Shown: positions 3,124 through 28,542 of the stretch, piece after piece
Position numbering within the stretch: the stretch's first letter is position 1
Layout: every line of letters begins with the position of its first letter
Origin: Eledone cirrhosa
Taxonomy: Eukaryota
DNA: 31,267 nt
Assembly: GCA_964016885.1 (NCBI GenBank)
Contig: CAXHJY010000260.1
Location: 1 to 31,267 of the forward strand
Direction: 5' to 3'
Position numbers and translations under genes: made by a program
Notes under the pieces: model-generated
The model's database searches: none
The model's input: only the letters and a program-made list of their open reading frames with translations
Told to the model about the DNA's origin: nothing

Positions 3124-3373
3124 ATAATATAAGATCAAAAGATGGTTAAAGGAGTTCCATGTATTTTATTATGCGCATTTCAAAAACAAACATTATCATG
3201 CAATATGTTGATTTAAAACTGCACTATCCACAAGTGTTTTTTAGCCTTCATATCATGTTCTCAAGGTTTTATGTGATGAAAACACAAATATTATTGCATG
3301 ATAATGTTTGTTTTTGAAATGCGCATAATAAAATACATGGAACTCCTTTAACTATCGTTTGATCTTATATTAT
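3124..3373 (+). mobile_element. 250-bp fold-back element (82-bp inverted arms at 3124-3205 and 3292-3373) carrying a hammerhead motif
   Basis: The arms are near-perfect reverse complements. A second copy lies at 18648-18896 and a truncated copy at 1444-1579. Confidence 0.85.
3267..3333 (+). ncRNA. Hammerhead motif with a C3G core mutation (probably inactive)
   Basis: UUUUAU-GUGAUGA-stem II-GAAA-UGCGCA-UA/AUAAAA. Palindromic helix III AUGCGCAU is intact. Confidence 0.6.
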
Positions 3374-3380
3374 ATATTAC

Positions 3381-3452
3381 GGGGCCGATAAAATAACGTA
3401 CCAGTAATGCACTGGGTAATTGCTGGCCTTGTGCCTAAAGTAGAAACAATTA
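3381..3452 (+). mobile_element. SINE 3' fragment (same family as 25588-25715)
   Basis: ggggccgataaaataacgtaccagtaatgcactggg...gtgcctaaagtagaaacaatt aligns by eye with about 25638-25710. Confidence 0.55.
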
Positions 3453-3622
3453 TATATATATATATATATACATATATATATACATATATATATATATATA
3501 TATATATATATATATAGTACATACATATATATATACATTTATATATATATATATACATATATATATATATATATATATATATATATATATATATATATAT
3601 ATATATATATATATATATATTT

Positions 3623-6600
3623 ATAAAAACAAATAACGAAACGAAATTAAATTTCGTTTCGTTTGTAACTCACTTTTGTATGACTGACGCTTAAACAATT
3701 AAGTTAAAGATGTACATCCATATATGTATACTGAAATACTAGTATGTATATGAATACACACACGTATACATATGTAGATGTACCAAGTTTTTTCACTGGT
3801 CATTTTACTGTGAGTGGCCAGCTATTCTGTATGTAAACACACAGACAAGCCGGTTTTTAGAGTCATACTGGTTTTTGAGGAAACACCTTTCCTCTATTCT
3901 CCAGAAAGCCAGACAAGGAATATTGAACTAGTTTCGTTGTTGTTACAACTCATCAGCAATATTTACCTATCTTCCGGCCTCTCTAGAGAATCGTAAAAGC
4001 ACATATCGTTATATGCTTTTTCTATGAAAATTAGTAGTGGGCAGACTAATTTGCATAGAGTGTGAGTAAGTACCGGTTCAACGGAGACGATAAAAACAAA
4101 TAACGAAACGAAATTAAATTTCGTTTCGTTTGTAACTCACTTTTGTATGACTGACGCTTAAACAATTAAGTTAAAGATGTACATCCATATATGTATACTG
4201 AAATACTAGTATGTATATGAATACACACACGTATACATATGTAGATGTACCAAGTTTTTTCACTGGTCATTTTACTGTGAGTGGCCAGCTATTCTGTATG
4301 TAAACACACAGACAAACCGGTTTTTAGAGTCATACTGGTTTTTGAGGAAACACCTTTCCTCTATTCTCCAGAAAGCCAGACAAGGAATATTGAACTAGTT
4401 TCGTTGTTGTTACAACTCATCAGCAATATTTACCTATCTTCCGGCCTCTCTAGAGAATCGTAAAAGCACATATCGTTATATGCTTTTTCTATGAAAATTA
4501 GTAGTGGGCAGACTAATTTGCATAGAGTGTGAGTAAGTACCGGTTCAACGGAGACGATAAAAACAAATAACGAAACGAAATTAAATTTCGTTTCGTTTGT
4601 AACTCACTTTTGTATGACTGACGCTTAAACAATTAAGTTAAAGATGTACATCCATATATGTATACTGAAATACTAGTATGTATATGAATACACACACGTA
4701 TACATATGTAGATGTACCAAGTTTTTTCACTGGTCATTTTACTGTGAGTGGCCAGCTATTCTGTATGTAAACACACAGACAAACCGGTTTTTAGAGTCAT
4801 ACTGGTTTTTTGAGGAAACACCTTTCCTCTATTCTCCAGAAAGCCAGACAAGGAATATTGAACTAGTTTCGTTGTTGTTACAACTCATCAGCAATATTTA
4901 CCTATCTTCCGGCCTCTCTAGAGAATCGTAAAAGCACATATCGTTATATGCTTTTTCTATGAAAATTAGTAGTGGGCAGACTAATTTGCATAGAGTGTGA
5001 GTAAGTACCGGTTCAACGGAGACGATAAAAACAAATAACGAAACGAAATTAAATTTCGTTTCGTTTGTAACTCACTTTTGTATGACTGACGCTTAAACAA
5101 TTAAGTTAAAGATGTACATCCATATATGTATACTGAAATACTAGTATGTATATGAATACACACACGTATACATATGTAGATGTACCAAGTTTTTTCACTG
5201 GTCATTTTACTGTGAGTGGCCAGCTATTCTGTATCTGTATAAACACACAGACAAACCGGTTTTTTAGAGTCATACTGGTTTTTGAGGAAACACCTTTCCT
5301 CTATTCTCCAGAAAGCCAGACAAGGAATATTGAACTAGTTTCGTTGTTGTTACAACTCATCAGCAATATTTACCTATCTTCCGGCCTCTCTAGAGAATCG
5401 TAAAAGCACATATCGTTATATGCTTTTTCTATGAAAATTAGTAGTGGGCAGACTAATTTGCATAGAGTGTGAGTAAGTACCGGTTCAACGGAGACGATAA
5501 AAAACAAATAACGAAACGAAATTAAATTTCGTTTCGTTTGTAACTCACTTTTGTATGACTGACGCTTAAACAATTAAGTTAAAGATGTACATCCATATAT
5601 GTATACTGAAATACTAGTATGTGTATGAATACACACACGTATACATATGTAGATGTACCAAGTTTTTTCACTGGTCATTTTACTGTGAGTGGCCAGCTAT
5701 TCTGTATGTAAACACACAGACAAACCGGTTTTTAGAGTCATACTGGTTTTTGAGGAAACACCTTTCCTCTATTCTCCAGAAAGCCAGACAAGGAATATTG
5801 AACTAGTTTCGTTGTTGTTACAACTCATCAGCAATATTTACCTATCTTCCGGCCTCTCTAGAGAATCGTAAAAGCACATATCGTTATATGCTTTTTCTAT
5901 GAAAATTAGTAGTGGGCAGACTAATTTGCATAGAGTGTGAGTAAGTACCGGTTCAACGGAGACGATAAAAACAAATAACGAAACGAAATTAAATTTCGTT
6001 TCGTTTGTAACTCACTTTTGTATGACTGACGCTTAAACAATTAAGTTAAAGATGTACATCCATATATGTATACTGAAATACTAGTATGTATATGAATACA
6101 CACACGTATACATATGTAGATGTACCAAGTTTTTTCACTGGTCATTTTACTGTGAGTGGCCAGCTATTCTGTATGTAAACACACAGACAAACCGGTTTTT
6201 AGAGTCATACTGGTTTTTGAGGAAACACCTTTCCTCTATTCTCCAGAAAGCCAGACAAGGAATATTGAACTAGTTTCGTTGTTGTTACAACTCATCAGCA
6301 ATATTTACCTATCTTCCGGCCCTCTCTAGAGAATCGTAAAAGCACATATCGTTATATGCTTTTTCTATGAAAATTAGTAGTGGGCAGACTAATTTGCATA
6401 GAGTGTGAGTAAGTACCGGTTCAACGGAGACGATAAAAACAAATAACGAAACGAAATTAAATTTCGTTTCGTTTGTAACTCACTTTTGTATGACTGACGC
6501 TTAAACAATTAAGTTAAAGATGTACATCCATATATGTATACTGAAATACTAGTATGTATATGAATACACACACGTATACATATGTAGATGTACCAAGTTT

Positions 6601-25715: not shown

Positions 25716-25741
25716 AAGTTGTTTTCTTAAGGCCCGGTCGC

Positions 25742-25855
25742 TGGTGATGGTGGTGGCGGTGGCGGTGGTGGTGGCGGTGATGGCAGTTGATGTTGTTGTT
25801 GTGTTGTGTGTGTGTTTTGTTATTTTGAGTTTTTTTTTATTTTTGTTGTTGTTGT
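25742..25855. repeat. (GGT/GGC)n, (GTT)n and (GT)n low-complexity tract
   Basis: Direct reading. Confidence 0.9.
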
Positions 25856-27378
25856 AAATGTTCATGTCAGTTCATTCTGAAGCTGTTGTTGCTGTAAACA
25901 TTAGTGCCGGTGTTGTAGATGTTGGGGTTGAAATCTGGTACTTTGTCTGAGTGATGTATATACACACATATACATACATATATATATATATATATATATA
26001 TATACACATTCAACAGAGAGTAGAGAGTTTGACAACAGGTCGATGACTTAAGTCTAGATAGGGTAATGACATGTGATGGTGGGGAGAGAGTGTAGAAGTT
26101 ATTGTGGTGGCGGGGGTGACAGTGCGATGTATCTAGTTCATTTGACCGTTTTCTTCTCTTTGCAAAATTTGAATTTTAGCCATGTTATATTGAGATGTAA
26201 GTAAATGGAAAATGTAAAATATAAATAAGGATTGCTCTGCTAAAATATACTAAAATATTTGTGTAACTTCCACAAACTTCTGTCGTGATATTCCCGAGTC
26301 CAGTGACCAACAAATTGTTGTATTTTGATGTTTCAGAATACAAAAATTAATTAAAAACTTACCCCACGAAAAGACAGCGTGTGTTGTCCTATCTATAAGC
26401 TCCCTCATACATCATATCTCCCCTATATATATATATATATATTCATACATATATATATATATATATATAAGTTGAAAAAAATGAAAACGAAATTTCATTT
26501 CTCACTCTTAGTATGGCACTTACTTAAATGTAAGTATGTATGTATACGTACATACATATATGTATACAGACGTACAGTAGCATGCACATATATACACATA
26601 TACGCATATATATATATATATATATATATATTATACACACACATATACACATATGCATACAGGTACACATACATATATGCACGCATCAGTTTAGCCGATG
26701 TTTATTGGTATTCCAGGTAGTGGATGATATATATACTCATGTATACTGTTGAAGATGAAGAGAAAGACTGTAAAAAACTAGCTTATCTTTATAACTTAAA
26801 ATTGATATACACTACGATACTTTTTGCCTTATGACAGCTAGTTTTACACGCCGTAACATTAGATACATTATATACCCCCCACCTAAGTAATGTCTGGGTC
26901 TCCTAAATAATTTATTGATAGCATTGTTATAATTGTTGTTATTGTTCTAATTGAATGGCATTACTACTTGATATAGTAGCATGTATTTTCTTTTCTTTTC
27001 TTGCCTGTGTATTTTCTTCATTCTCGCATGCTCCGAGGATCTGACTGGTTATAATTCTGTATTGGCGATCGAATAACGCAAAATTAGGCGGATAGCGATC
27101 TCTAGACATACCAGTTCAGTGAAACAAATGTAAGCTATGTGATTAAAAACTTTTTTGTATAGCAAACCATGAAAACCTTCTTTCCTGATTTATATATATA
27201 TATATATATATATATATATATATATATATATATATATATATATATATATATATATATATATATATATATATATATATACATATATATATATATATACATA
27301 CATATATACATATATATATATATATATATATATATATATATATATATATATATATATATATATATATTATATATATAT

Positions 27379-27659
27379 GTATAAAGAAAAAGGGATGAAA
27401 TCGAAAATGCAACTGAACTCTTATTTTTTTTTTAAATATATATATTTATTTGGTTCCTTTACCGGTTTCGCAGTTCTTCTGCTTTTCAAAAGGTGAGTTG
27501 AGATGGTGGGTCTGTGGTAACCACAGAACCTCCATATCAACTCACCTTTTGAAAAGCAGAAGAACTGCGAAACCGGTAAAGGAACCAAATAAATATATAT
27601 ATTTTTTAAAAAAATAAGACTTCAGTTGCATTTTCGATTTCATCCCTTTTTCTTTATAC
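27379..27659. repeat. 281-bp palindrome (140-bp arms, 1-nt centre at 27519) with one HHR per arm; unique sequence continues to about 27720
   Basis: The arms are reverse complementary with a few mismatches. Centre reads tctgtggt-a-accacaga. Confidence 0.95.
27545..27582 (+). ncRNA. Minimal type I hammerhead ribozyme, U3-A8 variant (mirror copy at 27456-27493, minus strand)
   Basis: CCUU-UUGAAAA-GCAG(AAGAA)CUGC-GAAA-CCGG-UA/AAGG. Helix III palindrome ACCGGU; predicted GUA cleavage after 27578. Confidence 0.85.
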
Positions 27660-28542
27660 TTCCACTCGTGTAGGACACCTCGGTTATTTTTCATTTTGTA
27701 AAAAAAACCTCACTTTCTAATATATATATATATATATATATATATATATATATATATATATATAAATATATATATATATACATATATATATATATATATA
27801 CATATATAATACATATATTATATATATATATATATATATATATATATATATATATATATATATAATATATATATATATATATAATATATATATATATATA
27901 TAATATATATATATATACTATATATATATATATATATATTATATATATATATATATATATATATATATATATATATATATATATATATATATATTATATA
28001 TATAATAATATATATAATATATATATAATATATAATATATATATATATATATATATATAATATATATATATATATATATATATATATATATATAATATAT
28101 ATATATATATATATATACATATATATATATATATATATATATATATATATACACACATATATATATATATATATATATATATATATATATATATATTTAT
28201 ATATATATATATTATATATATATATATATATATATATTATATATATATATATACATATATATATATACATATATATATATACATATATATATACATATAT
28301 ATATATATATATATACATATATATATATATATATATATATGATATATATATATGATATATATATATATACATATATATATATATATATATATACATATAT
28401 ATATATATATATTTATATATATATATATATATATATATATATTTATATATATATATATTATATATATATATATATTATATATATATATATATATATATAT
28501 ATATATATGTATATATGTATATATATATATATATGTATATAT

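Follow-up and report, generated by a model that had tools for sequence, protein, structure and literature searches.

Near-strict pairing of short and tailed ends in outward-facing inverted insertions of Penelope-like elements and retrozyme-type arrays in Eledone cirrhosa

Penelope-like elements (PLEs) are known to carry a head-to-head inverted, 5′-truncated pseudo-long terminal repeat (pLTR) and a tail on one side only, and to target (TA)n sequences (PMC3846280, PMC8557442). How the inverted ends and one-sided tails originate is called undefined in PMC8557442, and the first in vitro study (PMC11167929) did not settle it. Mobilization of retrozymes by PLEs has also been proposed (PMC7229834; bioRxiv 10.64898/2026.07.22.740005); the latter text leaves the mechanism of mobilization open and favors array growth by unequal crossover. 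Here we analyze four hammerhead-bearing inverted insertions in one stretch of the Eledone cirrhosa genome, and compare them with further copies in the same genome (3.0 Gb, with abundant (TA)n tracts). The window is an entire unplaced contig of 31,267 bp (CAXHJY010000260.1), and we refer to the families found in it as A (a 467-bp array), B (a 593-bp array), C (a 250-bp element) and D (a 281-bp palindrome). Layout and polarity of such insertions are already known; what we add is a count of how their 3′ ends are paired, the extension to retrozyme-type arrays, and a reading in terms of two primings.

In every family the 3′ end takes one of two fixed positions, short (S) or tailed (L), with L lying beyond S by ~75 nt in A, 159 nt in B, 88 nt in C and 61 nt in D. 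Of the 190 junctions where both ends could be classed, 188 combined an S arm with an L arm, the remaining two being S+S and none L+L; the additional A loci gave S+L in 5/5, bringing the overall count to 193/195. Single-arm copies end at either site (S/L: A 2/9, B 29/21, C 19/5, D 12/23), so that an independent choice of ends would yield S+L in at most half of the junctions. The pairing of a short with a tailed end is near-strict in these four unrelated families. For this count we left out 26 junctions with an end that was unclassified or cut by the edge of a locus.

The second regularity is polarity. We located genome copies by exact sequence patterns for each family, which gave 5113 matches for A (and 958 of a variant), 1805 for B, 7990 for C and 2458 for D; a rare variant of family B had 15 exact-pattern matches. 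In the first 100 matches listed per family on contig C1, opposite-strand neighbors within 7 kb were head-to-head rather than tail-to-tail at ratios of 11:0 (A), 11:0 (B), 34:1 (C) and 34:3 (D), or 90:4 in total. The same outward polarity holds for all four insertions of the window, a 4/4 result that on its own has a two-sided p of 0.125. A reading made earlier from the letters of the window alone (the sequence-only reading) had put forward this polarity as a rule that might not have been described for retrozyme arrays; the genome counts bear out the rule, and the polarity itself has already been published for PLEs. Junctions were then scored in sequence at 385 loci and the window, with duplicates removed, a sample that covers only a few percent of the copies; loci L001-L090 were chosen as best BLAST hits and the remaining loci came from polarity-blind position lists. 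We left out seven of 227 junctions with a gap of more than 50 nt, and five rows in all that were either duplicates of the C event of the window or, in one case, a tandem duplicate. This left 215 direct head-to-head junctions, with six more in further A loci. By comparison, the tail-to-tail neighbors seen in sequence number 11, and every one is split by a TA-rich spacer of 28-1483 bp. TA sequence stands on both flanks at 182 of 209 junctions, in agreement with the earlier proposal of insertion into (TA)n. In the list-based loci, the inverted form accounts for 17/28 insertions of A, 32/64 of B, 48/65 of C and 46/66 of D. Some A inversions are very lopsided, with arms of ~14 kb and 346 bp at C1:5.738-5.753 Mb, and of ~1 kb and ~33 kb at C1:81.847-81.881 Mb. 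TA-flanked palindromes of other families are also common in the fetched loci (e.g., L004, L009, L013 and L055), which suggests that more families follow the same rule.

Within the window, self-comparison and an exact arm scan recovered the four inversions of the sequence-only reading with loops of 102, 178, 86 and 1 nt (Table 1). The mirror arms end at 11272/11375 in array A (3623-17068), at 19665/19844 in array B (19398-22048) and at 3205/3292 in element C, and the palindrome of element D (27379-27659) has a 1-nt center. From left to right, the order of the arms is L then S in A and C, and S then L in B and D. Extra element sequence is present on one arm only in C and D, and in arrays A and B the two arms likewise stop at different 3′ positions. 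A motif scan found type-I hammerheads on both sides of the junction in A, B and D, those to its left being on the minus strand and those to its right on the plus strand; in element C, the whole motif was found on the plus side only. The hammerheads have a short palindromic helix III and cores reading CTGATGA (A), TTGATAA (B), CTGATGA (C) and TTGAAAA (D), and we take the U3-A8 cores to be tolerated covariation. The C core is mutated to GTGATGA in the copy at 3036 and is retained as CTGATGA in the copy at 18560. Among the Rfam matches listed, only the A motif appears (HH9, 37.7 bits, under the gathering score of 52). The four families are mutually unrelated, as had been claimed, their sole common stretch being one 33-bp low-complexity match. 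The claim that the outer ends lie in (TA)n holds with one exception: where the C copy stops on its right (3373), 73 bp of unrelated letters come next.

Table 1 Arms, junctions, further copies and flanking tracts in the window
Feature	Position	Strand	Remarks
Family A L arm, 16.6 units	3623..11376	-	outer end 3623 adjoins (TA)n; hammerhead in each unit
Family A S arm, 12.2 units	11375..17068	+	stops ~75 nt short of the L end
Array A junction	11273..11374		apparent loop; 2-nt overlap of arms
Family B S arm	19398..19665	-	hammerhead 19470-19559, TTGATAA core
Family B L arm, 4 units	19664..22048	+	extends 159 nt past the S end
Array B junction	19666..19843		apparent loop; 2-nt overlap of arms
Family C L arm	3036..3205	-	88-nt tail 3036-3123, absent from the other arm
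Family C S arm	3206..3373	+	holds the 86-bp "loop" and the hammerhead
Second copy of the same C insertion	18560..18896	.	identical junction; hammerhead 18788-18858 (+)
Third, partial copy of the C insertion	1356..1578	.	from self-comparison
Family D pLTR S arm	27379..27518	-	hammerhead 27456-27493
Family D L arm	27520..27719	+	60-nt tail 27660-27719; hammerhead 27545-27582
(TA)n tract, left of array A	3451..3622	.	
(TA)n tract, right of array A	17069..18559	.	
Further family A copy, variant 96% alike	30965..31267	-	S end at 30965; truncated where the contig stops

The sequence-only reading had grouped all four families with the retrozymes, which fits two of them. Judged from their sequences, C and D are 3′ stubs of two putative autonomous PLEs and not retrozymes, and their copies in the window are best described as very short PLE insertions. 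Longer copies do not consist of tandem non-coding units, as retrozymes do, but run into predicted PLE open reading frames (ORFs) of 821 aa (C) and 768 aa (D), and a diagnostic base is common to the C stubs (67/68) and the long C arms (50/51). The D ORF (locus L226) matches RVT_1 (E=1.3e-6) and GIY-YIG (E=2e-4), both slightly under the Pfam cut-offs. The C ORF (locus L216) has no Pfam match, and YRDD, DKT and CxCX5C motifs can be made out in it by eye, as in the description of the Hydra clade in PMC8557442. In both families the pLTRs occur in direct and in inverted orientation and the tail is on one side only, and the motif scan places a type-I hammerhead with a palindromic helix III in the pLTR (absent among the Rfam matches listed). 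C and D would therefore belong with the endonuclease-bearing PLEs, and in L226 the order of parts is the textbook one: inverted pLTR, pLTR, ORF, pLTR. In contrast, A and B fit non-LTR retrozyme-type arrays: they consist of tandem units with a type-I hammerhead in each, like the animal non-LTR retrozymes, and the arrays in the window have no ORF of 150 aa or more. The B units also contain a TATA-like TATAAATA (window 19783-19790 and its repeats) beside a GC-rich stretch, a possible internal promoter.

Both arms of an insertion come from one source. At family-variable sites, the agreement between the two arms is 0.91, 0.85, 0.76 and 0.50 for A to D, respectively, against 0.17, 0.16, 0.13 and 0.16 for random pairs, and in three long A arrays the variants peculiar to the locus are present in every unit of both arms. 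Such variants in every unit are expected from a circular monomer template, later homogenization being another route, and the near-identical units within an insertion fit the circular or multimeric RNA template that had been proposed from the window. As a candidate mark of RNA editing of the template, we counted the excess of sense-strand A-to-G changes: among shared variants it was 4:0 for rare ones in A (p=0.06) and 34:28 in B (p=0.005, from non-independent changes), and it was reversed in C. Locus-specific differences in family A are often sense-strand A>G, and in one group of reads at window 11755-11774 (run X21) A>G changes are clustered. An A>G variant at one long A locus (L343/L344, C1:56.387-56.398 Mb) is carried by 6/11 S-arm units, spaced with a period of nearly 3, and by 0/11 L-arm units.

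We consider it fairly probable that both ends of a (TA)n double cut each prime a cDNA of their own, one at S and the other at L, on RNA of the same source, and that the two cDNAs are then joined. A PLE-type enzyme would cut both strands within a (TA)n tract, and each target end would be extended separately, one cDNA starting from S and the other from L. Both primings would be carried out by one, probably dimeric, enzyme-RNA complex on the same or a sibling RNA, which would be circular for arrays A and B, and the cDNA 3′ ends would be united by end-joining. The outward polarity would arise because each cDNA starts at a target end and heads to the 5′ end of the RNA. The "loop" would be the mere difference between two stop points, and the short near-perfect palindromes of C and D would form where both strands ran off the same RNA 5′ end, which may be marked by the clusters of arm 5′ stops near -250 (C) and -208 (D). 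A purified PLE protein, PAc Poseidon, offers close biochemical parallels in vitro: it cuts and extends both strands, prefers AT-rich target DNA, uses two internal RNA start sites with the tail between them, and has a predicted dimeric form (PMC11167929). Unlike here, the text of that study draws no tie to the inverted arm, nor to the use of different sites at the two target ends. The hammerhead cut was considered as a general 5′ stop and rejected (0/44 arm 5′ ends in A, 6/139 in B, 0/185 in C and 2/179 in D); the six B ends, which lie within 4 nt of the cut (p ~0.02, uncorrected), hint at some cleaved linear templates. A strict single-RNA block, with the 5′ ends of L arms piling up at S, was also rejected, the pile-up being not marked (1/25, 5/66, 5/89 and 2/95 in A to D).

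The main rival, which we regard as unlikely, places a fold-back first and trimming second: a cDNA started from L would fold back and be copied to L, and the endonuclease would then cut one arm at S in the course of integration. It is close to the endonuclease-mediated resolution and the self-priming ideas of the PLE literature, in which the tail is ascribed to endonuclease resolution (PMC8557442), self-priming on an antisense template is proposed (PMC3846280), and the tail of Drosophila virilis Penelope is required for endonuclease recognition (as told in PMC11167929). It would also yield the S+L pairing, the variants common to both arms, and a loop on either arm. Two primings nevertheless agree better with the geometry of the arms than these published explanations do. 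Fold-backs at any distance would be needed, since the smallest-loop size in the arrays is consistent with a uniform spread (Kolmogorov-Smirnov p 0.60 and 0.83) and the stops of C and D lie up to ~3 kb apart. Trimming of a fold-back must further account for the 12 of 180 inversions whose arms have 10 nt or fewer in common. Moreover, S serves as a starting point for reverse transcription in vitro, and there are single-arm copies that have their end at S, beside TA.

A simpler fold-back had been offered by the sequence-only reading: a single cDNA, primed at (TA)n, would snap back and use itself as template. This model is refuted as a general rule, may still explain a minority of events, and is in our view very improbable as the explanation of the pattern. 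Snap-back gives the right polarity and variants common to the arms, and one arm is contained in the other in 118/180 inversions. However, a self-copying strand implies that the second arm is contained in the first, whereas neither arm lies within the other in 62/180 (A 3/15, B 15/39, C 31/65 and D 13/61), including element C of the window. In the scored C and D cases, the S arm runs further 5′ in 44, the L arm does so in 16, and the two stop jointly in 66; in those 44 cases, the window element C again included, the would-be copy bears a tail that the supposed template lacks. Nor does snap-back give a reason for the copy to halt at a second fixed site in 193/195 junctions. It had been noted in support that the loop is in register with the longer arm, and predicted that the loop-bearing arm would be at least as long as the other: the register holds in the window and not elsewhere, the longer arm bearing the smallest loop in 26/49 arrays, which is the chance level, and in an array the loop can be drawn on either arm (eight rearranged C/D rows were left out of the loop test). 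The A locus with a variant in the units of one arm only also speaks against a copied arm, as a single locus whose variant may postdate the insertion.

Still less probable are two independent insertions in one (TA)n tract, or a later rearrangement, of which head-to-head cases were preferentially kept. Repeated insertions into (TA)n tracts and separate tail-to-tail neighbors do occur, but this explanation is strongly disfavored because the junctions are direct, with no TA between the arms, the locus variants are common to both arms far above random pairs, and the S+L pairing is near-absolute. Least credible of all is an assembly or library artefact from fold-back chimeric long reads: the window contig is unplaced, the outer units of the left arm of A contain indel noise and the reads examined leave the window's own junctions uncovered. 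Against it, chimeric reads would give exactly mirrored ends and flanks, and the observed ends show a fixed difference; the distinct junctions scored number more than 200, most of them on chromosome-scale contigs; and an antisense-to-sense B joint (19549 to 20173, 2-nt overlap) of another locus is present in raw Illumina reads. The reads with that joint number 83 and 56, with one start each, in two samples of one study, and an opposite-strand joint within the A unit (11837/11892) is found in three raw reads in which polarity is unreadable. These reads are 90-99% alike and their species label fits run X1, the reads being not necessarily from this genome.

Several observations weigh against the two-priming reading or are neutral between it and its rivals. 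First, the sharing of variants is equally predicted by snap-back or by later conversion between the arms. Second, 66 of the 126 scored C/D cases have arm stops no more than 15 nt apart, which snap-back also allows. Third, the expectation that the S arm would be ahead on one RNA fits C (31:8) and does not fit D (13:8), A (6/15) or B (22/39). Fourth, an overlap of at least 1 nt is present at just 82/215 junctions and 117 have extra letters, which are partly an artefact of mismatch to the reference copy. Fifth, neither an autonomous partner of A or B nor a PLE ORF adjoining their arms was found in the fetched loci, which represent a few percent of the copies; the nearest same-strand PLE matches are 0.8-1.5 kb from A or B arms. 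Sixth, about a quarter to a half of the insertions are single-armed (A 11/28, B 32/64, C 17/65 and D 20/66). Seventh, the start sites in vitro are alike for either strand, top or bottom (PMC11167929). At last, an empty site or a target duplication is unreadable, the target being a microsatellite.

A close parallel outside PLEs is the twin priming of LINE-1 that Ostertag and Kazazian reportedly put forward in 2001, and that is also mentioned in bioRxiv 10.1101/2024.12.14.628481. In twin priming, each end of the cut target is said to start a cDNA on a single RNA, so that a 5′ inversion results and the sense strands face outward. The position of the second start varies in LINE-1, and there is hardly any overlap between the two pieces. 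Here, in contrast, the second start is fixed (193/195), and the arms usually overlap widely, with 10 nt or fewer shared in just 12/180. An overlap this wide calls for strand displacement, for a circle, or for a further copy of the RNA. Compared with published PLEs, the tails are longer (~60-160 nt here, 30-40 nt in PMC3846280 and PMC8557442), and the one-sided tail is counted here as a near-strict pairing rule. Pairs of hammerheads on opposite strands have been noted before in PLEs as dual minimal hammerheads 100-700 bp apart, and the part of PMC4209133 drawn on gives neither a polarity count nor a mechanism for them. Unlike the animal retrozymes of PMC7229834 and bioRxiv 10.64898/2026.07.22.740005, arrays A and B bear the PLE insertion signature on both multi-kb arms; by word search, the term "inverted" has no use in the former text and one in the latter. 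Neither inverted retrozyme arrays nor PLE twin priming turned up in a literature search that did not reach most subscription papers, early Penelope work among them. The earlier proposal of a PLE-type route common to all four families is supported, with its reach extended to retrozyme-type arrays. This provides structural evidence that PLE machinery pastes such arrays into the genome, for which the earlier case consisted of co-occurrence and pLTR similarity, and suggests a possible route to thousands of genomic palindromes. For PLEs, the S+L pairing and the arms that are often not copies of one another narrow the question of inverted ends to a sharp test, one that could be run in the existing in vitro system.

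More tentatively, programmed two-site twin priming may be routine for PLE enzymes, although we would not yet call it the likelier outcome. A dimer would grip the RNA at both ends of the tail and extend each (TA)n break end from a different fixed site; on a circular retrozyme RNA, both subunits would roll round one circle, producing multi-kb palindromic satellite arrays in one event. If true, a single mechanism would account for how the pLTR comes to be inverted, why the tail is one-sided and how retrozyme arrays are born.

Further features of the window concern its repeats and another PLE. One unit, made up of a 99-bp repeat, (TA)n and the C insertion of Table 1, recurs several times at window 1-3450 and 17600-18897 and at C3:242.367-242.375 Mb, the C3 site being without arrays A or B. 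The surrounding region, C3:242.355-242.395 Mb, was considered as a clean empty allele and rejected: it has C copies and the 99-bp repeat, and neither an array nor the sequence downstream in the window. Two interleaved pairs of short inverted stubs (28546-28613/29837-29904 and 29674-29721/30367-30414) lie within the (TA)n tract at 27720-30964. On the minus strand at 22341-25170, an RTE-like endonuclease fragment is in frame with the C-terminal GIY-YIG part of a third PLE. The fusion forms a 627-aa open frame (22755-24635), followed by a pLTR with a fifth hammerhead (22502-22548) and no inverted arm, and came about either when synthesis changed templates between the two RNAs or when a PLE landed in an RTE element in truncated form.

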